Source: a plasmid
Length of the DNA stretch: 64,000 nucleotides
Sequence record: NZ_CP027239.1
Reading direction: 5' to 3' (one strand)
Below the pieces are notes generated by a model that saw nothing but the letters and a program-made list of their open reading frames with translations, ran no database searches and had not been told where the DNA came from. How positions within the stretch are numbered: the stretch's first letter is position 1; each line of letters begins with the position of its first letter. The position numbers and the translations under genes were made by a program. Shown piece after piece: positions 626 to 34,927 of the stretch.

Positions 626-639
626 GCCCCCTTCCAGGG

Positions 640-2400: not shown

Positions 2401-2410
2401 GGCGTGGCGG

Positions 2411-3022: not shown

Positions 3023-3082
3023 CGTGAAGAACGGGCGGCCGAGCGGGCCGGCCCGCAGGGGGACGTGTGGCCGGGGTGGGCC

Positions 3083-3115
3083 TGTCTCCCTGGGAGACAC
3101 CGGCGGTTTCTGTCC
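3083..3115 (+). promoter_or_regulatory. palindrome TGTCTCCC-t-GGGAGACA + 10 nt + CTGTCC composite element (copy 1)
   Basis: Seen directly. Same architecture recurs at 5 other sites. Confidence 0.5.
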
Positions 3116-3579
3116 GCCCCCGGCGGCAGGCCGTGCCCGGGTCGTCGAGCTGCTTCTGGATCGCCCACATCGCCTGGGGTCTGACCCGGCGGCGAGTCGG
3201 CGCCGCGCGGCCCGGCCACCTTCACTGGCTCTGGGCGTGACGGGGACCAAACACGCGATTGGTGGCGGGCCTGCTCCCGCGGGCCACTCCCCCGCGGCCG
3301 GCACCTCGCCCCAGCCGTCCGCCCCCGCCGGGCCGCCGAGTGGGTCAGGGACAAGAATCGACCAGCTCCCCCGCCGACGCCGCGCACCGCAGGGCGGCCC
3401 GGACCGTCGCCGATCAACCCCCGGGGGCAGACGGGCCCAGCGGCCCCCAGCGGCCCCTCGCGACGGCGCGGCCCGGGATGGTCCGCGAGGTCCGGGCCGG
3501 CGCCACAGTCACCGGCGGCGGGTGCAGGGTAGGGACCAGACGGCGACCCTCGCCGCCCCTTCACCATCGGAGGCACGCC

Positions 3580-4011
3580 ATGACCCTCGCCAACCCGTCC
3601 CTCACCAACCCGTCCCTCACCCCAACCGGCCGCCTGGAGAACCTGTCCGATCGCGTCACGAACCTGCGCGACCGCCTCGACGGCCTGCGCGACAGAGAGC
3701 ACCTCAGCGAGTGGCTGCGCGACGACCTGGACTCGGTGCAGACCCTGCTCGACCGCATCGACCGTGCCGTCGCCGAAACGCTCGGCCGGATCCACTCCCT
3801 CACCCGCTTCGGGGACGAGATGTGCTCGGAGTCAAAGCAGCTCGCGAACACGCTCGTGCTCGCCGAAGACCCGTGGATCAACTACGCCCACGCCCGCCTG
3901 GCCGCCGCCAACATCACCTACCTGGCCCTGCGGCCCGCCCCGTGTCGACGCCCCACCCACACCCGGCAGCGGGCAGCCCGCCCGTCCGCGGGCCGGCCCC
4001 GTCACCGGTAG
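3580..4011 (+). CDS. hypothetical protein
   Basis: GGAGG 7 nt upstream of ATG. C-preferring GC3 codons. Coiled-coil-like sequence (LRDRLDGLRDREHLSEWLRDDLDSVQTLLDRIDRA). Confidence 0.6.
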   Translation: MTLANPSLTNPSLTPTGRLENLSDRVTNLRDRLDGLRDREHLSEWLRDDLDSVQTLLDRIDRAVAETLGRIHSLTRFGDEMCSESKQLANTLVLAEDPWINYAHARLAAANITYLALRPAPCRRPTHTRQRAARPSAGRPRHR

Positions 4012-4213
4012 CCGACGAGGACAGCCCCGCCGCGCCCGGCACCGGGCCGGCTGGCGGGCCCCGGCACCGTGCCAGCGCCGCGGTTCAGGCCGCACACGGC
4101 AGGCCGCCGGCAGCGGAGAACGCTGCTGCAATTCCCGCCGGACAAGGGACCGTATCGGGGTAGCGCGGCGGCACCCGCCCAGCGCCGACATCCCCTGACC
4201 GGAAGGCCCACCC

Positions 4214-4678
4214 ATGACCACCACCGCAGCCACTCGCATCGTCGCCAATCCCGACCTGACGGCCGGGGATCGCATCGCCACCCCGGACGGCTGGGTCACC
4301 CTCGAAGGGGACGCCGTTGCCAGCAGTCGAGCCCCGGACATGGTGTGCGTCGACGTCGCCGCCGGAACCCTGTACCTGGCCGCGGCGCAGTCGAGCCGAG
4401 TCCTGGACCAAGATCTCCACGACGAACCGCTGCTCGATGAGACCTACCTGGAGAGCAAGGGCTACAGCTCCGCCGACATCGAACTGTTCGCCCTCGGTCT
4501 GGCCCTGGGGCAAGGACGCGCCGCCGGCCTCACCGACGCCGCCACCATCCACCGGTTCTGCCTCGCCGACCCCGACGACGTCGACCGGCTCCTGACCTAC
4601 ACCGGCCACAGCGACCCGGGCCAGCTCCATCCCACCGCGGACACCGCCCTGGACTTCATCCAGAGCTACCGCGACTGA
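4214..4678 (+). CDS. hypothetical protein
   Basis: GGAAGG RBS. Clean 154-aa ORF with typical codon usage. Confidence 0.65.
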   Translation: MTTTAATRIVANPDLTAGDRIATPDGWVTLEGDAVASSRAPDMVCVDVAAGTLYLAAAQSSRVLDQDLHDEPLLDETYLESKGYSSADIELFALGLALGQGRAAGLTDAATIHRFCLADPDDVDRLLTYTGHSDPGQLHPTADTALDFIQSYRD

Positions 4679-4826
4679 AACTGCGCCGACCGGGCAGCGC
4701 CGCCCGGGCGGGGCGGCGGGGCCCCGGCCCGCCTGGCGCATCCCCGCTGTTCACACTGGGGACTGGACGACCTGCGCGGCCTTGGCAGTGTGCCCACCTC
4801 AGCGCTCCGGCCCGGTCGCAGCTCAC

Positions 4827-4860
4827 TGTCTCCCACGGGAGACGGCACCGGCCCCTGTCC
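4827..4860 (+). promoter_or_regulatory. palindrome TGTCTCCC-ac-GGGAGAC + CTGTCC composite element (copy 2)
   Basis: 26 bp identical to copy 3 (gcagctcactgtctcccacgggagac). Confidence 0.5.
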
Positions 4861-4967
4861 AGCCATCGGCGCTGGTCTCTGGCGGACGGTAGTGGTCGTC
4901 GACGCGACCCCGGAGTCATAGGGCAATTCGCCCCTGTTCATGATCGAATACTCATGATTGCTCGTCA

Positions 4968-5606
4968 GTGAGCGGAAAGAGGTCGAAAGTGTCACTCCGT
5001 AGACAGCTTGCATGCGCGGGCATCGCGCTCGCAGTAGCTGGAGCTCCAGCCGTTGCCCATGCCCAGTCCCTCAACTTCGGGTCACTCGGCTCCACCGGGC
5101 CCGCGCAGCCCGCGCCGCCGACGGCAGCTCCGTCGTGGCAAGACCAGCCAATCCCGTTTAGAGCCTCCGGATCGAAGAAGTGGCGAGGCGAGGGCTGGAG
5201 CACCTCCTGCTACATCCGCGTTTCCATCGACCTGAGCTACTGGAACGCCGATACCCGTTGGTTCTCCATGTACCCCGATCTTCCCTACGGAGAGCTCTAC
5301 GCAGTAAACGACAACACCGGAGAGGCCAAGTACCTAAGCCTCACGGGCGGAGACGGCCGGTTCAGCGGGGGAATCATTGCCAGCTACGGGCTTCTGGACC
5401 GGTTCCCCGCCGGGGAAACCTCCATCGTGCGGATGGAAATCCGCACGAGGGACGGCGAGGTCACTGTCCTCGGTACGGCGCCCGTGACCATCCCCGCGGA
5501 ATGCCCGGTCAGCGACGAGGAAGCACTTGCAAAGTTCGGTCCGAACCAAGTCGGGGAACTTGCCCGCCAGATCACCCCGGACGGGCTGACGCTGACCCGC
5601 TCCTGA
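4968..5606 (+). CDS. secreted protein with Sec signal peptide (AHA-Q cleavage motif)
   Basis: N-terminus MSGKRSKVSLRRQLACAGIALAVAGAPAVAHAQ. 212-aa ORF. Confidence 0.7.
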   Translation: MSGKRSKVSLRRQLACAGIALAVAGAPAVAHAQSLNFGSLGSTGPAQPAPPTAAPSWQDQPIPFRASGSKKWRGEGWSTSCYIRVSIDLSYWNADTRWFSMYPDLPYGELYAVNDNTGEAKYLSLTGGDGRFSGGIIASYGLLDRFPAGETSIVRMEIRTRDGEVTVLGTAPVTIPAECPVSDEEALAKFGPNQVGELARQITPDGLTLTRS

Positions 5607-5707
5607 CCTACGCATCCTGCTGACATTCGGCAAGCGGACAGAAAGGATCGGGTGCCGGATTCCGGGCTGGAGGCCGGCCCCCGCACCCCGGCGCGGGCGC
5701 AGCTCAC

Positions 5708-5741
5708 TGTCTCCCACGGGAGACAACGACGGCTCCTGTCC
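5708..5741 (+). promoter_or_regulatory. palindrome + CTGTCC composite element (copy 3)
   Basis: tgtctcccacgggagaca then ctgtcc 10 nt downstream. Confidence 0.5.
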
Positions 5742-5869
5742 GTGACTGTGCGCAGGTCACGGGCCGCCTTCTGGGGCGACGACATCTGCCCGGTCTGGTT
5801 CGGCGAGACCGACGTCCCACGCTGACCGGCTGCTGCCGCCCAGTCAGACTCAGGTGAGAGTGTTCAGGC

Positions 5870-7066
5870 ATGAACGCGCACCCCTTCTCCGCGACGATCG
5901 AGCAGATTCGACGCGGCCCGTTCGTGCCGGGCCGCAACGCCGACCCCGATGTGCTGGCCGTCAAGCACACCCACATTCGGGATCCGCATGTCGCGCCGAT
6001 CAACGCGCTAGCCGACCGGGTCGCCGACGCCGAGGGCATCGACCGTGGCCTAGTGCCGTACGTCGACCCGCAGATGGGAGGTGTCGAGGCAGCGGTCCTG
6101 GCGCTGCTGGACAACCCGTCGACCAAAGCCGAGGCGGGGACAGGATCGGGCCTGCTTAGCCTGGAAAATGACGACCGAACCGCCCGCTTCTGCGCCGAGC
6201 AGTACAACCGATTCGGACTCGCCCCAGGCGAGGTCGTGCACTGGAACGCCGCGCCCGCCCCCGTCCCCGGAGCAAAGAACGGAGCCTCGACCGCCGCCGA
6301 ACGCGCTCGAGGCGCCCGATGGCTTCACGACCTGCTCGACCTGCTGCCGAACCTGCAAGTGGTACTCCTGATGGGCCGCAACGCCAGAGACGGCTGGAGG
6401 AGATCCGGTCTGGCGCCTGCAGGCATCCTCATCCCCGCGCAAGTGCCCCACCCCTCAGGTCGGGGCATGGCCAACACCGATGCGCACCCACGGCTGCACC
6501 GCGGCCTGGCCGCCACGATGACCGCCCTGCACGGCCCAGGCCTGGCCACCCCGCCCGCACCGTCCGCCAGCGGACACCGAAAGGCCACCTCCACTCCCCC
6601 GAGGTCCCCTGCAGCAGTCAAGCCCGCCTCGCAGATACCCGCCTCCACCGCGGTAAACCCGGACCTCACTGCCCGAGCCGGGTGGCAAGGTGACGCCATG
6701 ACTCCATCGCCCACGCCACAGACCCAACCCATACCGTCTGACGGCGCCGTCTGGGGCTGGTGGCCCACGTTCGAGCACTACTCCAGCACCGGGTCGAACC
6801 CCTGGGGCGTCTCGACCAATCTCAAGCAGGTGGAGGCCGCCATCGACCGTCACGACGGGCCACCGCGCAAGACGAGCCCGATTGCTCGACTGACCTCCAC
6901 CGGGTGGGTTCTCGAAGCCAAGCGGGGCAACGGTCGCACCATCGACATGAAGCCTCGCCAGGCCGACAGGTACATCAACGCCCGCGCCGGCGGCCCCTGG
7001 GGCAACCAAGGCAAGGTCCCGCCCTCGCACGAGCTGACCCGCCCGACCGTCCACCTCGACAAGTAG
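5870..7066 (+). CDS. hypothetical protein; N-terminal ~210 aa tentatively uracil-DNA-glycosylase-superfamily-like, C-terminal half unknown
   Basis: 398-aa ORF. VVLLMGRNA beta-strand followed by VPHPSGRG (resembles UDG motif B HPSPL/R). ENDDRTARFCAEQYNRFGL resembles the family-4 E..D..G.PF.G.AG.LL region. Motif A is degenerate. Confidence 0.6.
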   Translation: MNAHPFSATIEQIRRGPFVPGRNADPDVLAVKHTHIRDPHVAPINALADRVADAEGIDRGLVPYVDPQMGGVEAAVLALLDNPSTKAEAGTGSGLLSLENDDRTARFCAEQYNRFGLAPGEVVHWNAAPAPVPGAKNGASTAAERARGARWLHDLLDLLPNLQVVLLMGRNARDGWRRSGLAPAGILIPAQVPHPSGRGMANTDAHPRLHRGLAATMTALHGPGLATPPAPSASGHRKATSTPPRSPAAVKPASQIPASTAVNPDLTARAGWQGDAMTPSPTPQTQPIPSDGAVWGWWPTFEHYSSTGSNPWGVSTNLKQVEAAIDRHDGPPRKTSPIARLTSTGWVLEAKRGNGRTIDMKPRQADRYINARAGGPWGNQGKVPPSHELTRPTVHLDK

Positions 7067-7138
7067 ACGGACCGGGCCCTGCGTTCTGTCCCACGGTTCG
7101 ATCCGGGACGGCGCAGACCGGCGTAGCGTCTTCCCGTA

Positions 7139-7875
7139 TGTGCGGTCGGTATTCGGTAGCGGTTAGTGGCGCTGACCTGGTCGACGTCCTGCAGCTCGAT
7201 GGAACTGAGCCAGGGTTCGAGTGGGCGCCTGCCTACTCCGTCGCCCCCAGAACACGTGCCCCGGTGATCCGTGACCGCGTGGTCGGCGATCAGCGGGTCC
7301 GGGAAGCGCTCCTGCCCACGTGGGGCCTACGGCCGTCGTGGGCCAAGGAGAAGGGGCCTCGCCCGATTAACGCGCGCCTCGAGGGGGTCGCCACCAACGG
7401 GATGTTCCGCTCGGCCTTAGCCTCAGCACGCGTCCTCGTCCCGATGACCGGGTACTACGAGTGGCAGGAAGCCGTAGAGGACGGCAAGACGGTCAAGAAC
7501 CCCTCCTACGTCCACGCCTCCGACGACGAGCTCCTGGCCGCCGCTGGGCTGCTCGCGTTCCACCGCGACGGCGACGAGGAGGACTGGAAGGCGACGTTCA
7601 CCATCATCACCCGCACCGGGGAAGACGCCGCCGGCGAAGTCCACGACCGGATGCCGGTCTTCCTCACAGAGGCGGCGTGGAACACCTGGCTGAACCCGGA
7701 GAAGATCGCCAAAGACCAGGCCGGCGATCTACTCGACCTGCTCGACGGCGAATCCCGCACCGTCGCATCAACCCTGCAGACCCGCCCCGTGTCCCGGGCA
7801 GTGAACAACGTCCGCACCGTCGATCGCCATGACGCCAGCCTCATCACGGCCGTGCAGCGGCCACCGCAGAGCTGA
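7139..7875 (+). CDS. SOS-response-associated peptidase (SRAP/YedK/HMCES-like abasic-site processing protein)
   Basis: Starts MCGRY (catalytic Cys2 hallmark). The ORF track 5-prime extension (6760) is upstream junk. Confidence 0.85.
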
Positions 7876-7938
7876 TCCCAGGTCCGAGAAGGCCAGCCCG
7901 ACCGGGTCGCTGTCCAGCGGAGCGCCCGGCCGACGCGG

Positions 7939-8787
7939 TCACTCGACGAAGGCCCGCTCCAGCTCGTCGGACAGGCGGACAGACGCGTCGACGCACTGCG
8001 ACGCCAAGGAACCGATCGTGCCGAGGAACTCAGGCACGCGTGGGGTGTCCTGCAGGTCCCGGACCAACTCCATGCGAGCGAACACGTACAGCGCATCGGC
8101 CATCTTGGTGACGAGGGTGTCGATTACTTCGATGTCGCCGGCGGTGTCGCGGACGCTCCCCGCGACCGCGGATGCAGCCAGGACCAGCTGGCTGATCATG
8201 GCGTCCACGGCCATGAGCTCGTCGATTCGTGGATCGGTGCCGCCGTCGGTCGCCGTGGCCAGGTGTGATCGGGGGTCGCCGCCTTCGGCCTCGAAGTAGG
8301 CCGCCAGTAGAACCTGGGTCGATACGGTCGCCGCCGCCAGCATCCCGAGCCCCTTAGTGAAGACCGCCAGCGGCAGCACAACCATCTCGGGTTCACCGTC
8401 GAACACGGCGCCGTTGTCGGCGCAGGGGCCCGCAGTGAGGTACCAGTCCTCGAGCTCCTCTTTGATCTCGTCGCAGTCGTCGCCGTTGATGCTGTCCGGC
8501 CCGCCGGGCACCAGGCGATGGGCGATCAAGATGAGGTGGCACCAGTCGCTGGGCAGAAACGCGTCGAACGGCTCCTCGTCGGGGTCCTCCCGGCCTGGGC
8601 CGCCTGGGTCGGTGCACACGTTGTCGGGGATCCACCGCAACCACGCTTCCACCTGGTCGGGCAGCATCTCCGCCCCGTGGTCCGCCAGGGCGGTTCGTAC
8701 GGTGTCGGTCAGTGGGCCGGGCCAGGAGTCGTCCATTGGCCCAGTATGTGGCCGCGGCGCAGTGCTTCGGACCGACTTCGTCGACAT
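7939..8787 (-). CDS. hypothetical acidic protein (alternative start at 8737, MDDSWPG)
   Basis: 282-aa minus-strand ORF with good codon usage. Confidence 0.55.
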   Translation of the reverse strand: MSTKSVRSTAPRPHTGPMDDSWPGPLTDTVRTALADHGAEMLPDQVEAWLRWIPDNVCTDPGGPGREDPDEEPFDAFLPSDWCHLILIAHRLVPGGPDSINGDDCDEIKEELEDWYLTAGPCADNGAVFDGEPEMVVLPLAVFTKGLGMLAAATVSTQVLLAAYFEAEGGDPRSHLATATDGGTDPRIDELMAVDAMISQLVLAASAVAGSVRDTAGDIEVIDTLVTKMADALYVFARMELVRDLQDTPRVPEFLGTIGSLASQCVDASVRLSDELERAFVE

Positions 8788-8842
8788 CGGCGACGGCCAC
8801 AGCCGGCCCGATCGAGCTCGCGGTTGAGGCGGTCACGACATG

Positions 8843-8852
8843 CTGCTGCACC
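8843..8852 (+). promoter_or_regulatory. CTGCTGCACC conserved upstream motif (representative copy)
   Basis: ~85 nt upstream of ATG 8936. Confidence 0.5.
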
Positions 8853-8935
8853 GCGGGGCGGGGACGTGACGATGGATCGGCATCACCCCGCGTAGTGGAC
8901 TGCGCGGGCCGCCCCGCAGCTCAAGGAGTACGACC

Positions 8936-9565
8936 ATGCCGAACTGGGCCACCTGCACCATCTCGTTCGCCGGACCCACCCAGGGGGTGGCGGCCATCCG
9001 CGACAGTCTCGCCCCGGCTCCGGCGGATCCGTCGGAGCTGCGGTTCGACTTCAACAAGCTGTTGCCGACGCCTTCCGAGTTGGATGCCGTCATCTCGCCG
9101 CTGCGGGTGGTGGAGACCCAGGAGGAGGCCGACGAGATCAACGGTGATTCCGACCGGATCTGGGCCGTCACGCGGGCGACGGCGGAGCGCTTCATTCAGG
9201 ACTTTGGTGCCGTCAACTGCCTCAACTGGCGACGGGCAAATTGGGGAACCAAGTGGAACGGGCACTGCGCCGAGATCCTCCTCGACTGCCCCGGCGACGT
9301 GATCGTGCGGTTCGACACGGCCTGGACCGAACCCGGCCAGCTGTTGCAGGCCATGAGCCAGAAGCACGGGCTGACCATCACCGGCGGAGTCATCTACGAA
9401 GACGGCAGCGAGTTCTTCCCCGTGGCCTACTACCCCACCGGGACTTGCGACACCGCCGAGGCCGCAGAGTTGTTCGCGCGGCGCTTCGTCGTACGTGAGG
9501 AGACCGTCTACGACCCGGACGAGCCTGAGTCCACCTGGGTCGACCGCTGGATCGAGCTGGCGTAG
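8936..9565 (+). CDS. DUF1281-like protein (MPNW... N-terminus)
   Basis: MPNWATCTISFAGP...FDFNKLLPTP matches the conserved N-terminus of the DUF1281/Api92-like family as I recall it. Confidence 0.65.
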   Translation: MPNWATCTISFAGPTQGVAAIRDSLAPAPADPSELRFDFNKLLPTPSELDAVISPLRVVETQEEADEINGDSDRIWAVTRATAERFIQDFGAVNCLNWRRANWGTKWNGHCAEILLDCPGDVIVRFDTAWTEPGQLLQAMSQKHGLTITGGVIYEDGSEFFPVAYYPTGTCDTAEAAELFARRFVVREETVYDPDEPESTWVDRWIELA

Positions 9566-9578
9566 AGGGGACCGCCCC

Positions 9579-9597
9579 CCGCCCGGTGCACGGGCGG
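9579..9597. terminator. hairpin (ccgcccg-gtgca-cgggcgg) between convergent genes
   Basis: 7-bp GC stem, 5-nt loop, between the stops at 9565 (+) and 9599 (-). Confidence 0.4.
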
Positions 9598-9598
9598 A

Positions 9599-10585: not shown

Positions 10586-10726
10586 CGGCGGAGAGTGATG
10601 GGTTCGGTCATCCCAGAATCGTAGAACGTCCACACGTCCGCGGGCGGAGCTTGTGAACTGCTGCACCCGCGAGAGCCGGGCAGAGGGTGGAGCCACCAAC
10701 CCACCCCTGGACCGGAAAGCCCCGAC

Positions 10727-11167
10727 ATGACCTCCACGCTCGATTGCCCCACCGCCACCAACCTCAACGAGCTGCCCCACATCCCGCACCCCGAGTTCAA
10801 GTCCCGCGTCCTGCCCACCCTCAAGGGCAAGGGCCACCAGCCCGGCAAGGGCATCGGCCAGTACACGACCGGCGCCACCGACGAGGGCTGGGGCCGCGTG
10901 TACGTCGTCGTGACCCCCGAAGTGGACTGCCCCACCGTTCTGCGGCGCCCGCGCGCCCGCTCCAACACCCGCCCGATGGCGCTGTTGCTGCCGCGCCTCG
11001 ACGAGGGCACCTACCCGCACCTGGTCGGGCTGGCCCGCAGCTACAGCCACGAGTTCGTGCTCCGGGAGGCCGTCGGCGACGACGCGGGCCGCGCGGTGTG
11101 CGTGATCCGGCCCGGCAAGGTCGCCGCCCCGCACTGGACCCACCGGCGCCGCGACCCCCGCCACTGA
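10727..11167 (+). CDS. hypothetical protein
   Basis: 146-aa ORF divergent from the preceding minus-strand gene. Confidence 0.6.
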   Translation: MTSTLDCPTATNLNELPHIPHPEFKSRVLPTLKGKGHQPGKGIGQYTTGATDEGWGRVYVVVTPEVDCPTVLRRPRARSNTRPMALLLPRLDEGTYPHLVGLARSYSHEFVLREAVGDDAGRAVCVIRPGKVAAPHWTHRRRDPRH

Positions 11168-11244
11168 GCGGACGGGACCGCCGCAGTCGAGCCGATCTCT
11201 CGGCGAACCCGGTTGCGGCGCCCCGCGGACGTGCACGGGGCGCC

Positions 11245-11276
11245 GTCTCCCCGGGAGACAACTGCTACTCCTGTCC
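11245..11276 (+). promoter_or_regulatory. palindrome GTCTCCC-c-GGGAGAC + CTGTCC composite element (copy 4)
   Basis: Followed by CTGCTGCACC at 11315 and ATG at 11386. Confidence 0.5.
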
Positions 11277-11314
11277 GGTTCTTCTTCGAGGTCAACCGGT
11301 ACCTGCGATCAGTT

Positions 11315-11324
11315 CTGCTGCACC
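11315..11324 (+). promoter_or_regulatory. CTGCTGCACC conserved upstream motif (representative copy)
   Basis: 62 nt upstream of ATG 11386. Confidence 0.5.
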
Positions 11325-11385
11325 GCCGGCAGGCCATCAGAGGGTGGAGTCACCACGAAGAACCCACCCCTGAGGAGCTCGCCAT

Positions 11386-11773
11386 GACCGACATCCTGAC
11401 CGCCCCTGCCGCCGGTGCCGCCGCGCAGGAGCTCACCTCCACGCCGCGCCTGGCCACCCTCGTCGACGCCGCCCTGGGCGCTTACGGCGACTGGGGAGCG
11501 GCGACGGCCACCCTCGACGCCTGCACTGGCTCGGCCGTCGAGGTGGAGACAGCCCGCGTGGCCAAGTACGACGCGTACTGCCGCTACAACCGACGGATCG
11601 ACTCCCTCGCGGAGGCCTCCGGCCACCTGATCGCCGTCGACGCGCTGGCGAAGTTCACCGGCACCAAGTACGCGGTCGATGCCGGCATCCGCTACCTCCA
11701 CGCCTCCAACGCCGCCTGGGAGCACGCCCTGGACAACCCCGAGGACTACAACGGCCTCTTCGACCCGCACTGA
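11386..11773 (+). CDS. hypothetical protein
   Basis: GAGGAG RBS. Start context cctgaggagctcgccatgacc is identical to that of the gene at 12742. Confidence 0.65.
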
Positions 11774-11946
11774 CCCACCCAGACCACTGAGGGCGGCGCC
11801 TGCAACACCGCAGGCGCCGCCCTCCTCCGAGAACGGGCTTCACCTCGCGGCCAGCGAGAATTGCCCGGCCGAACCCTGTTCCCGCTACAACGCAGCGCGG
11901 TTTCCACGCTGCGAATGCGTTTCGTTTAGACCCTCACCGGGCAAGC

Positions 11947-12390
11947 TCAGCGCCCCAAGTCGGGGCGGAGAATCGGCTTGTCACCGAGCATCATCCGGGG
12001 CTCACCGATGGACAATTCCGTCCCGTTCTCAAGCTCACTCCTGCTGAATGTCTCGCTCACTCCGCTGAGCCCGAAGCTCACCTCGTAGGGGCCACCCTCG
12101 CCCACTTCCACTGGCGTGAAGAAAGTGAACTCGCAGTGCCTGCCGCTCTTCATGGAGAGAGTCAGGTCGGTACTCCCGACCTGCTCTCCGCTGGAATCAA
12201 CGATCACAGCGCGGTCCGTGTCCGCCACTTCTCCCCTGCACCCATCGCCGTTGACGGACCCGGTGTTGTCGACCACCCGCAATCGGGCATCGAACGTGGA
12301 CGGCTCACTGCTGCAGCCGACGAGGCTTGCGAAGACGAGCGCACCAACACCCGATAAGACGGCCGCCGTCCGAGTTCTGCTGTTGATCAT
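11947..12390 (-). CDS. lipoprotein (signal peptide + LVGC lipobox)
   Basis: MINSRTRTAAVLSGVGALVFASLVGCSS... Confidence 0.7.
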   Translation of the reverse strand: MINSRTRTAAVLSGVGALVFASLVGCSSEPSTFDARLRVVDNTGSVNGDGCRGEVADTDRAVIVDSSGEQVGSTDLTLSMKSGRHCEFTFFTPVEVGEGGPYEVSFGLSGVSETFSRSELENGTELSIGEPRMMLGDKPILRPDLGR

Positions 12391-12741
12391 TTGCAGAGAC
12401 TAGCGACGCCGCCCATTCTCAGTTCGCACTATGTCCAGAACCTTCTCTGCGGTCCCCTTTTCAGCCAGGTTCGTCGTCTCGGCGGCGCCCTCGATCGTCG
12501 AGCAGGCTTCACCCCGATCAGCGACGTACTCGGCCTGGTGGACGACGACGCCGCCAGCAAGCTCTCCCGCACTCGGCTCGAGCGACCGCAGCCCCTCCAG
12601 ATGGCGGGGTCGGCGCGTTCTCGTCCTGTCCGCCGGACCCGATGGCATCTTCGCAGGCCCGCACCTCTGGGCTGCCAGGCTGCTGCTGCACCGCGGTCGG
12701 CCCGGCGGAGAGTGGTGGCACACCGACCTGAGGAGCTCGCC

Positions 12742-13008
12742 ATGACCGCCAACGCCCAGTACGCCGCCGACGCCGCCCGCACCGCCGCCCGACTGATCGA
12801 GTCCGGCGCCATGAACGCGGACGCGACCTGCGCAGAGGCCGCCGGAGTCGCCGCCCGCCTGCAGCCCGAGGCCGCCGCGGTGGTCGACTCGCTCGCCGTC
12901 ATGCCCGCCAGCCCCGAGTATCAGGCCGCTGTCGACTGGAACAACGCCCTGCTCGACCTGCTGATGTACGCACACGCCCAGGACGCGGACGCGCCCATTT
13001 CAGCCTGA
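12742..13008 (+). CDS. hypothetical protein
   Basis: GAGGAG RBS. CTGCTGCACC 50 nt upstream. The track ORF start at 12391 is an upstream extension. Confidence 0.55.
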   Translation: MTANAQYAADAARTAARLIESGAMNADATCAEAAGVAARLQPEAAAVVDSLAVMPASPEYQAAVDWNNALLDLLMYAHAQDADAPISA

Positions 13009-13155
13009 TGTGCGCAGATCGGTTGAGGCGACCAGCACGAATGGCGCGAGGCGCGTGTCGAGTGGACGCAGGCGCCCTCGATCTCCAAACATCATCAGCG
13101 ACCGCGGGAGACCACCCTCGCGGCGCGGACTTCACACTCGAGCAAAGGATCGTCG

Positions 13156-13509
13156 ATGCACCACGACCCGGTCACGTACGTCACCGCGGAGCTGAAAGCT
13201 GCCGTAGATGAGGCTCATCGAATCGGTCGGCGGCGAGAGGAGGGCATCGCCACTCCGGAGGATGACCTCCGAGCCCGCTTCCTCGAGGGGAATCTCGACG
13301 CTCTCGATAGGGCGCGGAGGATCCTCGGCACCATCGACACCGACCATCGGGAGCTAGTCGTCGCCCACCTCAAGTTCGCCCTGAATCAGTCGATGGTGCA
13401 GGGCGCACCAACAGAGTGCCTCCAGGGGTTCGCCCGCGTGATTAACGATCTCGACGATCCGCACAGTCCGATCCGTGCCGCCGCCACAGCCAATCCAGAC
13501 GTGCCCTGA
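13156..13509 (+). CDS. hypothetical protein
   Basis: 117-aa ORF with typical codon usage. Confidence 0.6.
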   Translation: MHHDPVTYVTAELKAAVDEAHRIGRRREEGIATPEDDLRARFLEGNLDALDRARRILGTIDTDHRELVVAHLKFALNQSMVQGAPTECLQGFARVINDLDDPHSPIRAAATANPDVP

Positions 13510-13557
13510 TAACTAGCCCCCTCAGCCGTGGTCGAGCTCGACACCCGGGCCGCGTTC

Positions 13558-13589
13558 GTCTCCCCGGGGAGACACCGGCCCGCCTGTCC
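13558..13589 (+). promoter_or_regulatory. palindrome GTCTCCCC-GGGGAGAC + CTGTCC composite element (copy 5)
   Basis: Perfect 8-bp-arm palindrome, then ctgtcc 10 nt downstream. Confidence 0.5.
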
Positions 13590-13709
13590 ACCCAAGATGC
13601 CTGGTCACGGCCACTCGACGCGCGGTTGTGCTGCACGGCCAGAGGCCTCCCGCATCGTTGCTCTCACATGGAGCGGGACCGGCCCGCGCCCGAGTGTGAG
13701 GAGCCCACC

Positions 13710-14240
13710 ATGAGCGTCACCTTTCAGCCCGACGAGGCACCCGTCGTCGGGTACCGCGTGGCCGACTTCGCCGGTGGCCGAGCCCCCGAGCTGTTCGACG
13801 ACCGGGACGACGCTGTCGCGGCCATGTGCGCCGCCGAGTCCGCAGGCCGCGTCCTGCCCGGCTGCACCGACCCGGTTGGCATCACCAGCATGGGCGGCTA
13901 CTTCATCGACGCCGTCACCTCCGACCTCGATCAGGCGCCCAGCATCAACGTCTCCAACATCAACGCCGTCAGCGTGCTGGAATTGCTGGGCTTCGCGCAC
14001 GACGGCGAGGTCGACCTTGTCGGCTCGTGCGACGCGGAGCAGTTCGAGGGTCGAGTCCTCACGGCGCTGGCCCTGGCCCCGGCCGACGCCGGAGTGCCCG
14101 CCTACGAGGCCGCAGGAGCCGGCGGAGCCACCATCGTCGAGTGCGGCCGACGGCCCGGCTACCACCAGGACATCCTGGGGCGTCTCTACGCGATCTGCGC
14201 GTGGGCCCGTGCCCGGCAGCGGCGCATCGTCTGGTCCTGA
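13710..14240 (+). CDS. hypothetical protein
   Basis: GAGGAG RBS before ATG 13710. Confidence 0.6.
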   Translation: MSVTFQPDEAPVVGYRVADFAGGRAPELFDDRDDAVAAMCAAESAGRVLPGCTDPVGITSMGGYFIDAVTSDLDQAPSINVSNINAVSVLELLGFAHDGEVDLVGSCDAEQFEGRVLTALALAPADAGVPAYEAAGAGGATIVECGRRPGYHQDILGRLYAICAWARARQRRIVWS

Positions 14241-14459
14241 TCAGTGGGCGGCCCGGTCAGCCTGGCGCGGGGTGTGCGCCGGCGGCTCGGGCCGCCATGG
14301 GCGTCGCCTGTCCGCCGGCGGCGGCCAGCACGAAACGGCCCGCCACGTGTGTCGACGCTGCCCGCCAGACAGACGCGCCCCTCGAGACGCTGCTGCACCC
14401 GGGCGGGGCGCCTCGACAGTGGGGGCATCACCCGTTCCCGACTCCCCAGGAGATGACCC

Positions 14460-14729
14460 GTGACTACTCCCACCACCGGCCCGTTCTGCCAGGCCGAGCC
14501 CGACACCAGCCCGAACGCCGACGGGCAGGCCCACGTGGCCTACTACGCCGGCCACACCTCCTTCGTCTGGAACGGCGGGGACCTCATCGGCGTGTGCCCC
14601 GGCGGCTACGGCGAACCCATCACCGACTGGATCCCCGCGCCCCACGGCGCGGCCGAGATGACGACGGCGCAGGCGCTGCTGTGGATCGAATCCGCCGCCG
14701 ACCTGTACCTGACCAGCCAGCGGACGTAG
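14460..14729 (+). CDS. hypothetical protein (GTG start)
   Basis: AGGAG RBS. CTGCTGCACC 65 nt upstream. Confidence 0.55.
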   Translation: MTTPTTGPFCQAEPDTSPNADGQAHVAYYAGHTSFVWNGGDLIGVCPGGYGEPITDWIPAPHGAAEMTTAQALLWIESAADLYLTSQRT

Positions 14730-14937
14730 CCGGCAGCCGGGCCGGGCGTCGCCGCGCACACCGCCGGTGATGCCCGGCCACTGCCGTCGGCTCATCTCGA
14801 AGGTGGCCGCGCCGCCCCCAACGCTGTCCGCTCGATACCCAGGTCGCAGGTGCAGGGCCGCCGCTCTCACCTGCTGCACCAGGCGAAGCCGGCGAGACGC
14901 TGGAACCACACCGCAGCAGCCAGCCCCCGGGAGGACG

Positions 14938-15182
14938 CCATGATCCGCATCAAGATCGCCGCCACCATCACCACTGACGAACCCGCCGACGTTTTCGCCC
15001 TGCACGCCGACGTCGCCGCCGCTGCCGAGGACGCGATCATGTTCACCGTCGCCGACACGCAGGTGATCGTTGACGTCGCCGGCCCGGACCTGCCCGCCGT
15101 GCTCGCGGTCCTCTCCCCCACCGGCGCCCTCGGCCAGATCGCTGTCTCCGCCGCTGAGCAGCCCGCACAGCCCGCAGCCTGA
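14938..15182 (+). CDS. hypothetical small protein
   Basis: GGGAGG RBS. CTGCTGCACC 65 nt upstream. Confidence 0.5.
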
Positions 15183-15280
15183 CCCCGCGGACCGAGCGCC
15201 CCCGCCGGCCGGTGAGGGGCGCCTCGGCGTGCGCCCGAACCGGGCCTTCACGTCGCCTGTGCGGGCCGACGCCAACGGGG

Positions 15281-15316
15281 AAGGCCCCGATCCTGCCTAA
15301 GCGGGATCGGGGCCTT
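15281..15316. terminator. 13-bp perfect stem hairpin (aaggccccgatcc...ggatcggggcctt) between convergent genes
   Basis: Seen directly. Followed by ctgtgggg. Confidence 0.5.
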
Positions 15317-15336
15317 CTGTGGGGCTCGTAGGTCAG

Positions 15337-15516
15337 GAACCGACCTGGCCGACGATGTCGGCGAGGCTGCCGATCGGCTCGGCACTGCCGGAGACGCTGC
15401 CGAGGGAACCGGTGAACGGCAGGCCGGCGAGCAGGTCGCCGATGATCGGCAGGTTGGCGATGGTGTCGTACGCGCCGAGCAGTCCGGCGATGCCGTTCAG
15501 GGATCCAGAGATCATG
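15337..15516 (-). CDS. small Gly/Leu/Ile-rich hydrophobic peptide (59 aa)
   Basis: MISGSLNGIAGLLGAYDTIANLPIIGDLLAGLPFTGSLGSVSGSAEPIGSLADIVGQVGS. The longer 157-aa track ORF N-terminus looks spurious. Confidence 0.4.
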
Positions 15517-15765
15517 GTGCGCCCTTTCAAGAGGTTTCCGATGGGTTGTAGGCGCAGGTGCCGCGCCCACCGGCCAGACGGTAACAGCGGCCCATGCCGG
15601 CGCCTGGGTTCCCAGCGAGGGCGGTAATGCCTCGACCTGTCCGACCACTCCCCCGGCCCGGCCAGGGCGGTCGGCTCGCGTGCGCCAGGCGCCGGTTCTG
15701 GCAATGCTGCACCGGCACGGGCCGGGCAGATAGTGGAGGCACACCCACCACCGAGGAGGCCTCCG

Positions 15766-16074
15766 ATGACCACCACCACCGCAGCCACTGACCCGACCGA
15801 CACCACGATCCATGGCCCGGCCGGCAGCTACACGCTGGTGTTCCGGGGCCACCGCAAGCCCGACGCGATCCGCGCCCTGAGCGCCAAGGGGCCGATGCCC
15901 TACGGTGCCGACCACCTCTGCGTCGGAGTGAGCATCATCGACGGCTACACCGTCGCCAACAACGACACCTTCCGTCGCATCATGGACTGCCTCGGCTGGG
16001 AGATCACCGAGGTGACCGGGCTCCTGGACCCCAGCGGAACCACGACCTGGCTCGGCGATCCCGTCGCCGCCTGA
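15766..16074 (+). CDS. hypothetical protein
   Basis: GAGGAGG RBS. Start MTTTTAATDP. Confidence 0.6.
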   Translation: MTTTTAATDPTDTTIHGPAGSYTLVFRGHRKPDAIRALSAKGPMPYGADHLCVGVSIIDGYTVANNDTFRRIMDCLGWEITEVTGLLDPSGTTTWLGDPVAA

Positions 16075-16139
16075 CACGCCCTCGCCCCGCCAGCGGTGTC
16101 ACCGCCCTGGCGGGGCCGAACCCTGATCGGAGACAGGCC

Positions 16140-16430
16140 GTGAACCGCTACGCCCACACGCTGGTCGAAGAACTCCACGCCGCCGGCTACGCCGCCGAGG
16201 CGCCCTGGCCCACCGGCGGCGAATGCGAGCAGATCGGCCTCCAGGTCGGCGCCCTGGAGGTCGGCATCACCAACGGCGATGCCGCCCTCCCCGACGGCGA
16301 AGTGCACGACGGCCTGATCGCCTATGTCAGTGCCCGCGACGCCGACGGTGACGAGCTCGACGCAGTCCCGCTCCCGCCGGGAGGCAGCATCGTCGACGCA
16401 GTGGCTCAGCTCATCGACCGCCTGACCTGA
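16140..16430 (+). CDS. hypothetical acidic protein
   Basis: 96-aa ORF. Confidence 0.55.
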   Translation: MNRYAHTLVEELHAAGYAAEAPWPTGGECEQIGLQVGALEVGITNGDAALPDGEVHDGLIAYVSARDADGDELDAVPLPPGGSIVDAVAQLIDRLT

Positions 16431-16440
16431 CCTCCAACCG

Positions 16441-16474
16441 GCGTCTCCCACGGGAGACGCCGCGATTCCTGTCC
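16441..16474 (+). promoter_or_regulatory. palindrome GCGTCTCCC-ac-GGGAGACGC + CTGTCC composite element (copy 6)
   Basis: Seen directly. TGCTGCACC follows at ~16547 and ATG at 16613. Confidence 0.5.
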
Positions 16475-16612
16475 GCGTCCCTTGGCTGCTCACACCCCAG
16501 CGACGGCCGATCGACATGACGCGGAACAGGCTGATTTCAGCGGTGCTGCACCTGCTCGCGGGGGCACCAACGTGGTGGGCGAAGGCACGTCACCCACCTC
16601 CAGGAGGCAGCC

Positions 16613-17620: not shown

Positions 17621-17861
17621 CGACGTGCCCCGGAACAACTTCCTCCGCTTTCCCTCCGACAAGGAAGGCGAGAAGTACCAGTACGCGCGCACCGCGAACA
17701 TGGTCATAGCGATCACCGCATCAATCGGCCTGTGCATCGTCATGCTCGCTCTGTACGCGACGGTGAGGTCTTCCCTGCTGTTCGTCGCGGCAGGCATCAG
17801 CGCAGGTGTCGCGGTGGGGCTCTGGTACCTGACCAAGCCCCCGGTCGACGAGGAACCCTAG
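17621..17861 (+). CDS. small two-TM membrane protein (GTG start)
   Basis: GAGGAG RBS. Hydrophobic helices MVIAITASIGLCIVMLALYATV and LLFVAAGISAGVAVGLWYL. Confidence 0.45.
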
Positions 17862-17992
17862 GAGCATGGGTCAGTAATGGCTCGAAGCGCGCCGAGAGTA
17901 CGGCGGAGTGCGTGAGAGCGTTGCGCTCGGGCCGGCGTCACTGGCGGACAGGTATTCGGTTTGCGAAGCCGCGGTGATGGCGTTCAGTCCGC

Positions 17993-33254: not shown

Positions 33255-33257
33255 GCG
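33155..33257 (+). repeat. 103-bp direct repeat, copy 1 (3 mismatches vs copy 2)
   Basis: tctccaggatccttacgcgttcgactctcccgacgacag...ctgtggtgagcg. Confidence 0.85.
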
Positions 33258-34824: not shown

Positions 34825-34927
34825 TCTCCAGGATCCTTACGCGTTCGACTCTCCCGACGACAGCTGGATCTTCCGCGAGGGACTGCGCTACAGCGACCTG
34901 ATCCACTCGACTGTGCTGTGGTGAGCG
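34825..34927 (+). repeat. 103-bp direct repeat, copy 2
   Basis: Matches 33155..33257. Forms the 3-prime end of an otherwise dubious ORF 34640..34924. Confidence 0.85.

Follow-up and report, generated by a model that had tools for sequence, protein, structure and literature searches.

A palindrome and CTGTCC box repeated upstream of genes on a large Dietzia-type plasmid: putative protein-binding sites of a plasmid-wide gene-control system

Introduction

What is the role of a perfect palindrome that recurs between the genes of a plasmid, each time followed at nearly the same distance by a short asymmetric box? The question is raised by 64,000 nucleotides of sequence record NZ_CP027239.1 (the window), part of a large Mycobacteriales plasmid of the actinobacterial Dietzia type. 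A preliminary description of this stretch proposed that the composite is a dimeric-repressor operator overlapping a promoter element or, alternatively, an RNA processing site or attenuator hairpin.

Results

The palindrome, (T)GTCTCCC-N1-2-GGGAGAC(A), has a 15-16 bp core, GTCTCCC-N1-2-GGGAGAC, with six exact matches in the 64-kb window, all on the + strand (Table 1), versus 0.00 expected from 100 dinucleotide shuffles. It is followed by CTGTCC(G/A) after 11 nt in four copies and 10 nt in two, confirming the recurrent composite that had been described. All six palindromes are intergenic by our own GC3-based gene calls, and the six genes that they precede are of unknown function. Allowing two mismatches added a single chance-level match, at 10199; the window thus holds no degenerate palindromes and none scattered inside genes. 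Some details of the preliminary description require adjustment. The starts at 11245 and 13558 are right; the arms of the first three copies begin one base after a T, and the sixth begins at 16443 instead of 16441. Copies 2 and 3 do share an identical stretch (repeat family D10), which covers 27 bp at 4817-4843 and 5698-5724; in the intervals first given, 4821-4846 and 5702-5727, the last three bases differ. The reported 140-170 nt to a gene start is close for five copies (139-170 nt to an RBS-supported start codon), but the copy at 3084 lies 496 nt from ATG 3580, or 175 nt from TTG 3259 if that codon is used.

Table 1. Composite elements, boxes and promoter-like repeats in the window. Third-motif scores are read against a 99th percentile of 3.7 for random sequence.
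Feature	Position	Strand	Details
Composite copy 1	3083-3133	+	T, palindrome 3084-3098 (GTCTCCC-T-GGGAGAC), 11-nt spacer, box CTGTCCG 3110-3116; no TGCTGCAC promoter downstream
Copy 1 third motif	3126-3133	+	GCAGGCCG, score 5.4
Composite copy 2	4827-4878	+	T, palindrome 4828-4843 (centre AC), 11-nt spacer, box CTGTCCA 4855-4861
Copy 2 third motif	4871-4878	+	GCTGGTCT, score 8.7
Composite copy 3	5708-5759	+	T, palindrome 5709-5724 (centre AC), 11-nt spacer, box CTGTCCG 5736-5742
Copy 3 degenerate second box	5746-5752	+	CTGTGCG
Copy 3 third motif	5752-5759	+	GCAGGTCA, score 12.0
Composite copy 4 with putative promoter	11245-11345	+	palindrome 11245-11259 (centre C), 11-nt spacer, box 11271-11277
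Copy 4 third motif	11287-11294	+	CGAGGTCA, score 11.1
Copy 4 putative promoter	11316-11323, 11340-11345	+	-35-like TGCTGCAC (box start + 45), -10-like GAGGGT; ATG 11384
Composite copy 5 with putative promoter	13558-13658	+	palindrome 13558-13573 (centre CG), 10-nt spacer, box CTGTCCA 13584-13590
Copy 5 third motif	13600-13607	+	CCTGGTCA, score 9.2
Copy 5 putative promoter	13629-13636, 13653-13658	+	TGCTGCAC (box start + 45), -10-like CATCGT; ATG 13710
Composite copy 6 with putative promoter	16443-16573	+	palindrome 16443-16458 (centre AC), 10-nt spacer, box 16469-16475
Copy 6 third motif	16485-16492	+	GCTGCTCA, score 11.2
Copy 6 putative promoter	16544-16551, 16568-16573	+	TGCTGCAC (box start + 75), -10-like CAACGT; ATG 16613
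Boxes without palindrome, left arm	7086-15643	+	degenerate CTGTCCC 7086; CTGTCC[GA] 7910, 12626, 14308, 14824, 15637
Intergenic palindrome-less box array	35297-56013	+	each upstream of a small + strand gene; starts 35297, 36029, 37513, 38627, 39181, 40408, 42062, 42147, 43526, 45144, 45805, 46293, 48425, 49021, 50254, 51358, 53316, 53972, 55159, 56007
Promoter-like sites (n=25)	8844-54110	+	TGCTGCAC-N16-(G/C)ANNNT; starts 8844, 10659, 11316, 12684, 13629, 14391, 14872, 15705, 16544, 34731, 35517, 36077, 36983, 37574, 38694, 39240, 40557, 42194, 43592, 46429, 49085, 50322, 51416, 53420, 54081

The box is more widespread than the palindrome. CTGTCCG occurs 49 times in the window versus 19.0 +/- 4.6 expected, with 40 occurrences on the + strand, and its inverse, CGGACAG, is at chance level. 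By our own gene calls, 30 of the 47 + strand CTGTCC[GA] sites fall in the non-coding ~29% of the window. As first observed, many of these intergenic boxes precede other genes without a palindrome, in the left arm and in the 35-56 kb array. A third motif, GCWGGYCA, is usually present 9-10 nt past the box. Around 29 intergenic boxes we found no conserved position from -60 to +40, and hence no -35/-10 partner. We rejected the earlier suggestion that CTGTCCG is itself a core promoter element: it is a bare 7-mer, and a separate promoter-like repeat begins at least 45 nt downstream.

This repeat, TGCTGCAC-N16-(G/C)ANNNT, occurs 25 times in the window versus 0.04 expected, and TGCTGCAC has a single reverse copy there. 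Its fuller consensus is cTGCTGCACc-N15-a(G/C)ANNGTGG. Its geometry is that of a sigma-70-family promoter: the 8-mer never varies, the 16-nt spacer is constant in length but free in sequence, and the hexamer always keeps an A and a T four positions apart. The sequence points to a promoter assignment; the CA 7 nt after the -10-like hexamer is the likely transcription start. An RBS and ATG follow 35-45 nt past the repeat, at which we found no consensus RNA structure. A box lies within 200 nt upstream of 36 of 49 promoter-like sites, where box density predicts ~14%. The distance from box to TGCTGCAC is 45-150 nt, with a mode of 45-48 and never less than 45, and shows no clean helical periodicity; in the units of box and promoter, the box precedes the -35-like motif by 45-70 nt and sits at about -81 from the predicted start. 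The 45-48 nt register is kept by 10 of 12 palindrome copies and 6 of 24 bare boxes. Because TGCTGCAC never begins fewer than 45 nt past the box, the palindrome lies ~64 nt upstream of the -35-like motif, its centre near -100. Coupling to one promoter class is not strict, since a TGCTGCAC promoter follows only three of the six window composites, and relatives also have the module ahead of TTGACA-type sequences, at distances that vary.

These elements populate two arrays (~3-17 kb and 35-57 kb) of small, co-oriented genes, mostly of unknown function. Most array genes have their own promoter-like element, and the palindrome is added in about one fifth of the box/promoter units. Domains encoded in the arrays include DUF3846, DUF2786/DUF7168, SRAP, ART/ARH and a weak AcrVA2-like match; some genes of the putative regulon carry anti-defence-type domains. 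Only one HTH protein could be recognised in the window (36573-36971), and homologues with 62% identity to it occur on Dietzia plasmids without the palindrome. No ParB/KorB-like protein was found in the window.

Genome and metagenome scans yielded 35 non-redundant copies of the composite in Dietzia, Lolliginicoccus and related contigs. The palindrome arms persist in these homologous elements: arms and box are invariant across all 35, and the centre (1 or 2 nt), spacers and flanks are free to vary, which indicates selection on the motifs and not recent copying. The spacer from right arm to box is 11 nt in 30 of the 35 copies. Near-identical orthologous copies differ only in the spacers, the eighth arm base and the third motif. 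Where the downstream + strand gene is absent, the palindrome is lost or decayed, as at the bare box at window 7910 and in aTCTCCC of relative D; at the site matching window 7910, relatives D, L027 and L013 have a full or degenerate composite. The composite was found on no viral contig and on none of the Dietzia MobF plasmids examined. A Rhodococcus megaplasmid with the same ParA-AAA-RecG backbone carries the box and a one-base promoter variant, TGCCGCAC, and lacks the palindrome. Its boxes are mostly on the - strand in a block of mainly minus-strand genes (15-29 kb) and on the + strand in a + strand array, so box orientation appears to track gene orientation. T4SS genes adjoin the comparable array on this plasmid.

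The proposal of an RNA processing site or attenuator hairpin found no support. The composite matches no Rfam family, its hairpin is not followed by a run of T, and it lies upstream of the downstream gene's promoter. RNA structure prediction gave no significant fold in three of four regions tested; the remaining one folds better than shuffles, with either strand considered. Neither covariation, stem extension nor pairing between box and third motif revealed excess base pairing. Invariant arms, a free centre and the lack of covariation support a putative sequence-specific protein-binding site rather than a structural hairpin.

Discussion

Our tentative reading, to which we assign a probability of roughly 0.45, is that the module is putative double-stranded cis-regulatory DNA upstream of promoters, read by sequence-specific proteins, with the box in general use and the palindrome in a subset. 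The box would be the general upstream site of a plasmid-specific regulon, bound by an activator-like or upstream factor or by a stoperator-like silencer. The palindrome would be the operator of a second, probably dimeric, regulator that adds control of a gene subset from about -100, whether through contact with the protein on the box, through looping or by stopping read-through that comes from the upstream gene. Each of the two factors would probably be a plasmid-encoded protein of no assigned family, or a host protein.

The dimeric-repressor operator of the preliminary description survives in part. Site-like conservation, the fixed register with the box and the position upstream of genes all agree with it. 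Overlap with a promoter does not hold, given the distance to the -35-like motif and the three of six copies with that promoter. Because the centre is 1 nt long in some copies and 2 nt in others, the distance between half-sites shifts by 1 bp; such a shift is unusual for a dimeric repressor or another dimeric binder of double-stranded DNA and natural for a hairpin. For simple repression, a site near -100 would be a long way from RNA polymerase. The window's recognisable HTH protein is not confined to replicons that bear the palindrome. These last three observations also weigh against the reading that we favor, as do the loose coupling to one promoter class and the lack of clean helical periodicity in the box-to-promoter distances.

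A hairpin could instead act in single-stranded DNA. Conjugative entry might expose a 6-7 bp hairpin on the transferred strand to an enzyme acting at the 7-mer 10-11 nt from its foot: a primase or primase-polymerase, an HUH relaxase-type nickase or a hairpin-dependent polymerase. Complementary-strand synthesis could, for example, be primed just upstream of each establishment-gene promoter. Known sites share this geometry. In the MOB_F oriT of R388, the IR2 hairpin is followed by 8 nt and TGTCT^AT; IS608 is cleaved 10 nt 3' of its right-end hairpin; the RSF1010 ssiA site and N4 hairpin promoters are further examples. Like R388 oriT, ssiA and the IS608 right end, the composite joins a hairpin (invariant stem, free loop) across a near-fixed ~8-11 nt to a TGTC-containing linear motif, strand-specifically. 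Every copy is on the same strand and points the same way as a long, unidirectional array of small ORFs whose domains are typical of conjugative leading regions, and on the related Rhodococcus plasmid such an array adjoins T4SS genes. Co-oriented leading-region genes with early expression from single-stranded DNA are already known (PMC11541004; bioRxiv 10.64898/2026.01.09.698686), and Frpo/ssi elements (PMC11541004) are likewise repeated between genes of a conjugative-type plasmid, ahead of small co-oriented genes of which some encode anti-defence-type domains. However, the composite is not of the Frpo type: Frpo reconstitutes sigma-70 -35/-10 boxes within a long, imperfect stem-loop (PMC11541004), whereas here the stem is 7 bp, the promoter has no inverted copy and no significant fold is seen. 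Some 25 boxes have no conserved hairpin, and hairpins upstream of bare boxes are no stronger than control windows (-18.6 vs -16.1 kcal/mol). An oriT is single, with its relaxase adjacent, but the composite has at least six copies per 13 kb, and the window yielded neither a relaxase nor a primase nor an oriT. The preferred promoter register is left unaccounted for, and box orientation on the Rhodococcus plasmid appears to follow the genes. We consider this explanation unlikely.

Recombination at the box or palindrome, as sites bounding mobile cassettes (cf. integron attC or a relaxase-/HUH-mediated site), would account for the shuffled gene modules, and the small co-oriented ORFs look like a cassette array. 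When the window is compared with Dietzia 179-F or the metagenome contigs, homology breaks off at the elements. Window 5746-7085 (gene 5870-7066) has CTGTgCG at its left boundary and ttCTGTCCC at its right one, and at this position relative D has CTGTCCG-tga-CTGTCCG directly before SRAP; the 27-bp repeat bounds the segment between copies 2 and 3; window 11272-13584, palindrome to palindrome, is missing from relative D, in which a gene between two palindromes has its window homologue at 46842-47810. Ordinary short-homology recombination also predicts breaks at the sole conserved intergenic sequences, however, and at least one well-resolved junction (window 12981-13546) is off the element, its left breakpoint in a gene's 3' end and its right ~11 nt upstream of the palindrome. 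With no integrase or HUH enzyme found in the window, no paired inverse core to the box and, unlike integron cassettes, a promoter for each gene, a dedicated recombination site seems improbable. We regard as more improbable still a 3' element of the upstream transcript, either a stabilising or processing hairpin with a protein-binding box or a nut-like antitermination signal. The boxB/boxA arrangement of hairpin plus linear box is similar, orientation relative to transcription is single, and the composite frequently follows a separate GC-rich terminator-like hairpin. But since that hairpin usually precedes it, the composite may not be transcribed, and its invariant stem and free loop reverse boxB-type recognition. 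It lies upstream of the downstream promoter even in long gaps, where boxes 15637, 43526, 50254 and 51358 are 58-68 nt from that promoter and 448-537 nt from the upstream stop codon.

Protein-bound DNA modules have several precedents. The conserved inverted repeats (CIRs) of Streptomyces phage phiC31, bound by the phage repressor, reportedly accompany unusual early promoters (work attributed to Ingham and Smith and to Wilson et al. 1995). Like them, our palindrome is a conserved inverted repeat (~17 bp in CIRs) in many intergenic copies on an actinobacterial mobile element, with a family of conserved non-canonical promoters and short transcription units separated by terminators. Unlike CIRs, it is unrelated in sequence, varies in centre length, lies well upstream of the -35-like motif, is tied to an asymmetric 7-mer and belongs to a plasmid, not a phage. 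The box resembles the stoperators said to have been described in mycobacteriophage L5 by Brown et al. in 1997, in being short, asymmetric and present in dozens of intergenic copies in one orientation relative to transcription; it differs in length (7 nt vs 13), in its preferred distance to a downstream promoter and in residing on a plasmid, not a prophage. In RK2/IncP, KorB (OB palindromes) and KorA (OA) globally regulate establishment and maintenance genes, and many OB operators act at a distance, 80-190 bp upstream of start sites. Scattered palindromes with a second site type for a partner protein near promoters are common to both plasmids, but here no KorB-like candidate accompanies them, centre length varies and palindrome-to-box spacing is fixed at 10-11 bp.

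As the only sequences common to the intergenic regions, box and palindrome may also serve as short homologies for exchange of gene modules between related plasmids. Most likely, the composites are putative protein-binding sites upstream of promoters and part of a previously undescribed plasmid-wide gene-control system.

Results

Copies of the composite and of its box in the window

Within the 64 kb of the window, the palindrome GTCTCCC-N1-2-GGGAGAC is matched exactly at six places, always on the + strand; 100 dinucleotide-preserving shuffles of the window gave no match. In every copy the box CTGTCC(G/A) comes after the right arm, at a distance of 11 nt in four cases and of 10 nt in the other two. 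The six palindrome-plus-box copies of the preliminary description are thus real, with some corrections of detail. The last copy starts at 16443 rather than 16441; the two copies reported as identical over 26 bp do contain an identical stretch, but it spans 27 bp (4817-4843 and 5698-5724). The claimed distance of 140-170 nt to a gene start fits five copies (139-170 nt), but the first lies 496 nt from an RBS-supported ATG at 3580. Allowing two mismatches added a single, chance-level match at 10199. The window therefore contains no decayed or intragenic palindrome copies at up to two mismatches, and the scatter through coding regions that would have spoken against the element is not seen.

The box also occurs outside these copies, as had been noted, and is over-represented. 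CTGTCCG occurs 49 times (19.0 ± 4.6 expected), 40 times on + and 9 times on −, and 30 of the 47 + strand CTGTCC(G/A) sequences are intergenic by GC3-based gene calls, under which about 29% of the window is non-coding. Two of the few reverse-oriented boxes have the 11-mer CGGACAGAAAG in common, the one at 36487-36497 being 76 nt upstream of the Xre-type HTH gene. Three tandem copies of a 23-nt unit resembling CCTTCTCGTGGAGGCCGTGCC lie in intergenic DNA upstream of a box at 53316.

Features of the window with their coordinates
Feature	Position	Strand	Remark
Composite copy 1	3084 (start)	+	
Composite copy 2	4828 (start)	+	
Composite copy 3	5709 (start)	+	
Composite copy 4	11245 (start)	+	
Composite copy 5	13558 (start)	+	
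Composite copy 6	16443 (start)	+	
Reverse-oriented boxes with common 11-mer	5635-5645; 36487-36497	−	
Promoter-like sites (25)	8844-54110	+	
SRAP peptidase	7264-7875		Anti-defence/establishment-type
Weak AcrVA2-like protein	9599-10585	−	Anti-defence/establishment-type
1.7-kb insertion	17862-19568		
DDE (IS) transposase	18026-19501	−	Within the 1.7-kb insertion
ParA	20873-21922		
ORF directly downstream of ParA	21925-22377		
15-nt periodic repeat	22029-22117		Within the ORF downstream of ParA
IstB/DnaC-like ATPase			
Second ParA-like ATPase			
RecG-like helicase	28709-31141		
103-nt direct repeat	33155-33257; 34825-34927		Duplicates 3' end of gene 32184-33254
Doubtful ORF	33423-34595	−	Between the 103-nt repeats; no family match
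DUF3846 protein	35549-35959		Anti-defence/establishment-type
Xre-type HTH protein (one)	36573-36971		
23-nt unit, three tandem copies	53175-53257		Intergenic
DUF2786/DUF7168 proteins	54380-55072		Anti-defence/establishment-type
ADP-ribosyltransferase and ADP-ribosylglycohydrolase pair	57134-60583		Anti-defence/establishment-type
Operon with ordinary promoter	60761-63269	−	Promoter region 63270-63440

Gene content and replicon type

The window DNA is 68% G+C, and nearly all genes are on +. Apart from the families in the table, it encodes dozens of small proteins without a family match, and the genes downstream of the six composites match nothing in Pfam, PHROGs or NCBIfam. No relaxase, recombinase, primase or sigma factor was found in the window. 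The anti-defence and establishment-type domains suggest that the arrays of co-oriented small genes are establishment or leading-region-like. Exact matches to the window's proteins are in assembly GCA_025147785.1. Large Rhodococcus plasmids have the ParA-AAA-AAA-RecG backbone in common with the window, at 52-67% protein identity. One of them, Rhodococcus pyridinivorans NZ_CP040721.1 (stretches L036 and L041; 141-233 kb), carries T4SS-type conjugation genes next to a similar array, whose small + strand genes include DUF3846, zeta toxin and ADP-ribosyltransferase; the window is therefore part of a large Mycobacteriales plasmid of conjugative type. MOB-suite classes NZ_CP040721.1 as non-mobilizable despite these conjugation genes.

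The periodic repeat in the ORF downstream of ParA encodes basic KKxPAK-type repeats with a weak histone-H1-like hit, and the product may be the centromere-binding partner of ParA. The 103-nt direct repeats, 97% identical, enclose a 1.67-kb segment that holds only the doubtful minus ORF, and may be an insertion or rearrangement scar. The 1.7-kb insertion with the DDE transposase is missing from two near-identical metagenome contigs (L034 and L028), whose alignments jump from 17861 to 19569; it looks like a recent IS insertion.

Conservation of the composite outside the window

A scan of one genome per species for the palindrome followed after 10-11 nt by CTGTCC showed that a 232-kb contig from Dietzia sp. 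179-F carries at least five copies and Lolliginicoccus levis at least two. Metagenomes contributed a further 23 contigs, the majority from a single study, many carrying two to four copies; orientation is uniform within each of these contigs. None of the viral contigs scanned carries a composite, and two Dietzia MobF/T4SS plasmids that share the SRAP gene have neither the palindrome nor box enrichment. We treated four genome and four metagenome matches as chance, since they are single copies without box enrichment. These eight are located in gamma- or alphaproteobacterial DNA, a Streptomyces natalensis contig or a GC-rich contig (L016) that lacks CTGTCCG on both strands.

Across 35 non-redundant copies, seven bases of each arm and six to seven box bases are invariant, and an eighth arm position (T/A) is partly conserved. 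The palindrome centre is 1 nt long in 19 copies (T, C or A) and 2 nt in 16 (AC, CG, GC or CC). Between right arm and box, 30 copies have 11 nt and five have 10 nt, irrespective of centre length, so the right arm is registered to the box and it is the left arm that shifts, by a single base. At 16-23 nt from the start of the box there is a third motif, GCWGGYCA, which is weaker. With a weight matrix trained solely on copies outside the window, all six window copies score 5.4-12.0 for this motif, where the 99th percentile of random positions is 3.7.

The copies share no similarity in spacers or flanks, and near-identical orthologous copies differ only in the spacers, the eighth arm base and the third motif. 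Judged by this pattern, invariant motifs between free spacers are the mark of purifying selection on putative binding motifs and not of a recently copied mobile unit. Unrelated spacers and flanks leave no whole-unit similarity of the kind expected of a REP- or MITE-like repeat and rule out recent copy-and-paste of a mobile mini-element. Tandem gene duplication is rejected as the source of the repeats because the downstream genes are not paralogues.

Mosaic structure relative to Dietzia and other contigs

The Dietzia contig, 24 kb of which enter the comparison, is syntenic with 1-16 kb of the window, with blocks inserted, deleted and reshuffled. Upstream of the SRAP gene, Dietzia has a palindrome, a box and a second box; the window has a palindrome-box, a gene (4968-5606), another palindrome-box, a gene (5870-7066) and a degenerate box. 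The first of these window insertions is bounded by a 27-bp repeat that includes the palindrome, the second by CTGTgCG and ttCTGTCCC. Dietzia also lacks 11272-13584, which runs from palindrome to palindrome, and a gene between two Dietzia palindromes has its window homologue at 46842-47810. Single-gene modules are extensively shuffled between window positions 1-16500, the Dietzia contig and the related contigs L015, L027, L029 and L031; in L015 and L029, the homologue of 5870-7066 comes after that of 13668-14240. Breakpoints of this shuffling are concentrated at the conserved intergenic motifs, and we conclude that the motifs probably act as short homologies for module exchange.

A promoter-like repeat and its register with the box

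A repeat search identified a second, larger family in the window, cTGCTGCACc-N15-a(G/C)ANNGTGG, which is arguably a more important discovery than the composite. Its exact −35-like 8-mer, TGCTGCAC, is present 29 times on + and once on −; at 25 sites, all on +, (G/C)ANNNT follows exactly 16 nt on (0.04 expected). The 16-nt spacer is free in sequence, and the invariant A and T, four positions apart, correspond to −11 and −7 in the −10 elements of the sigma-70 family. There is an excess of CA 7 nt past the −10-like hexamer, and the sites are followed by a C-rich leader, ACCCACCCC (e.g. 11362-11370), a GAGGAG RBS and an ATG within 35-45 nt. RNAalifold finds no conserved base pairing in the 25 sites, and an RNA structure is rejected on that account. 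From these features we infer a private promoter class. No sigma factor or other candidate reader of the repeat was found in the window.

Of the 49 non-redundant promoter-like sites in window and relatives, 36 are preceded by a box at no more than 200 nt, where box density predicts about 14%. The distance from box start to TGCTGCAC is 45 (seven times), 46, 47, 48, 75 and 75 nt for copies with a palindrome; for bare boxes it is 46-48 (six), 58-61 (five) or 64-70 nt (seven), with a tail to 161 nt. The minimum in the window and relatives is 45 nt, and helical phasing was rejected, as no period stands out. Relative to the predicted start, these distances place the box start near −81, the third motif near −61 and, some 64 nt before TGCTGCAC, the palindrome centre near −100.

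Several observations tie the module to the gene that follows it. In long intergenic gaps the box lies 58-68 nt before the downstream promoter and 448-537 nt past the upstream stop codon, figures that missed small genes could blur. Where the downstream + strand gene is absent, the palindrome is lost (a bare box at 7910) or decayed (aTCTCCC in Dietzia), and relatives that retain a gene at the position of 7910 retain the full composite; the module therefore belongs to the downstream gene. Its coupling to the TGCTGCAC promoter class is not strict, because only copies 4 to 6 of the window precede such a promoter and because the module of relatives also stands 50-61 nt upstream of TCTAGATTGAC(A)-type sequences. 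Repeated TCTAGATTGAC(A) and TTGACAAG/TTGTCAAG motifs occur between composite and downstream gene in L027 (2400-2480), L033 (530-700) and the Dietzia contig (5390-5450), and look like a separate operator and sigma-A-type promoter system.

The suggestion that CTGTCC(G) is itself a promoter element was not borne out. No position from −60 to +40 is conserved around 29 aligned intergenic boxes; CTGTCCG therefore lacks a −35/−10 partner and is not a core promoter element. As a sigma-70-type −35 or −10 it has no partner hexamer at 16-18 nt, and the third motif is only 9-10 nt away. The minus-strand operon at the end of the window is served by a canonical TTGACA-N17-TAAATT promoter, with the special motifs all absent; the private promoter class is thus confined to the + strand arrays of genes of unknown function. 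In a test for orientation flips within the window, minus genes were seen to use ordinary TTGACA/TAAATT-type promoters and to carry no motifs.

On NZ_CP040721.1, CTGTCCG is both enriched and biased in strand: it occurs 15 times on + and 3 times on − in one 42-kb stretch, and 31 times in another, where 13.7 are expected. Among intergenic 8-mers, TGCCGCAC and CTGTCCGC are the commonest; TGCCGCAC differs by one base from the −35-like motif and has a (G/T)ANNGTGG-type element after it. The palindrome is absent from the stretches examined. The box is on + throughout the + strand gene array and mostly on − in a mainly minus-gene block (15-29 kb), with one − strand box 54 nt upstream of a minus gene. 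This distribution is a weak hint that box orientation goes with that of the genes, although codon bias may play a part in it.

Discussion

Of the readings considered, the evidence best supports a regulatory module that is read as double-stranded DNA and lies upstream of promoters; we place its probability at about 0.45. Box and third motif would form the general upstream site of a plasmid-specific regulon, and the palindrome would be an additional operator-like site in a subset of units. The anatomy and conservation of the motifs, their fixed registers, their placement with respect to genes and promoter-like repeat, and their occurrence in several genera are observed; the promoter role of the repeat, duplex protein binding to box and palindrome and the sign of regulation are inferred. 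The dimeric-repressor operator that had been proposed is supported in part, its overlap with a promoter element is not. The inverted half-sites are indeed invariant, but their spacing varies and the palindrome lies too far upstream of the −35-like motif to overlap it. The Xre HTH protein was rejected as a specific binder of the palindrome, since its 62%-identical homologues are on plasmids without the palindrome. In layout, the box resembles L5 stoperators: it is short, asymmetric, repeated many times, largely intergenic and mainly in one orientation. The system as a whole resembles the KorB/KorA operator network of RK2 and the arrangement in phage phiC31, where conserved inverted repeats are associated with unusual early promoters.

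What speaks for readings in which the composite acts as a single strand is that the centre varies in length while the right arm holds its register with the box, as for a hairpin read by a sequence-specific protein. A hairpin site used on conjugative entry is nevertheless unlikely, and several results oppose a generic structural hairpin: at six successive positions outside the arms, base pairing is at chance level; variable positions between box and third motif do not covary; and of four regions folded as DNA of either strand, a single one exceeds its shuffles. A second hairpin from box and third motif was rejected: pair-probability analysis gave only a modest CC/GG signal for the composites and no signal for bare boxes, and covariation was absent. 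An inverted repeat with CTGTCC 10-11 nt on has the apparent geometry of an oriT/HUH site; a canonical nick site is rejected by the six copies in 13 kb, the lack of a relaxase or Rep domain in the window, and the Dietzia MobF plasmids without the element. An Frpo-type single-stranded promoter is opposed by the single reverse copy of TGCTGCAC, which leaves no inverted promoter, and by the lack of a significant long-range fold. Somewhat less likely still is a specific form of the single-strand idea, in which hairpin and fixed-offset 7-mer, upstream of establishment and anti-defence promoters, would be a signal and not a transcription factor site, and a plasmid enzyme would prime on the incoming strand or nick and rejoin it. 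If true, early expression of the private promoter regulon would be coupled to the conversion into double-stranded DNA and perhaps also to cassette exchange. This reading would also be of greater interest, as a kind of signal not yet described for actinobacterial conjugative plasmids.

The shuffled modules, with their breakpoints at conserved motifs, raise the question of a recombination site, which we regard as improbable: the data do not require a dedicated site-specific system, and the window has no matching enzyme. The box as a universal crossover point was rejected because one well-resolved indel (12981-13546) has its junctions elsewhere, the left one within coding sequence and the right one some 11 nt before a palindrome. 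An integron attC or cassette is rejected, with no inverse core, no integrase in the window and a promoter-like site for each gene. An RNA 3' element is more improbable again, and the hairpin as RNA processing site or attenuator, also put forward in the preliminary description, found no support. The arms never vary, stem extensions pair at chance, no T-run follows the palindrome, Rfam has no match to the composite and folds are non-significant in three of four regions, which together reject a structural RNA hairpin, be it an intrinsic terminator or an attenuator. Control windows from this GC-rich DNA have hairpins as strong as those that precede bare boxes, so terminator hairpins before every box are not the rule.

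Neither the literature, searched for the motifs and for similar accounts from Rhodococcus plasmids, nor phage records returned anything relevant. We therefore see in the system a new version of a familiar arrangement, in which a mobile element uses repeated operators and upstream sites for a promoter regulon of its own. In Dietzia, Rhodococcus and related bacteria, large plasmids contain long arrays in which small genes of unknown function all point one way, some of them with anti-defence or establishment-type domains. For these arrays the box and the palindrome, together with the promoter-like repeat, define a three-level cis code that is conserved across genera: a private promoter class, a general upstream 7-mer and, in a subset, an extra perfect palindrome. 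The code provides handles for a regulator search, as pull-down oligonucleotides and as sites for reporter mutagenesis. It makes regulon membership predictable from sequence, and transient switch-on at entry into a new host becomes testable. The same motifs mark points of module exchange, and may thus be useful in understanding how the arrays diversify.
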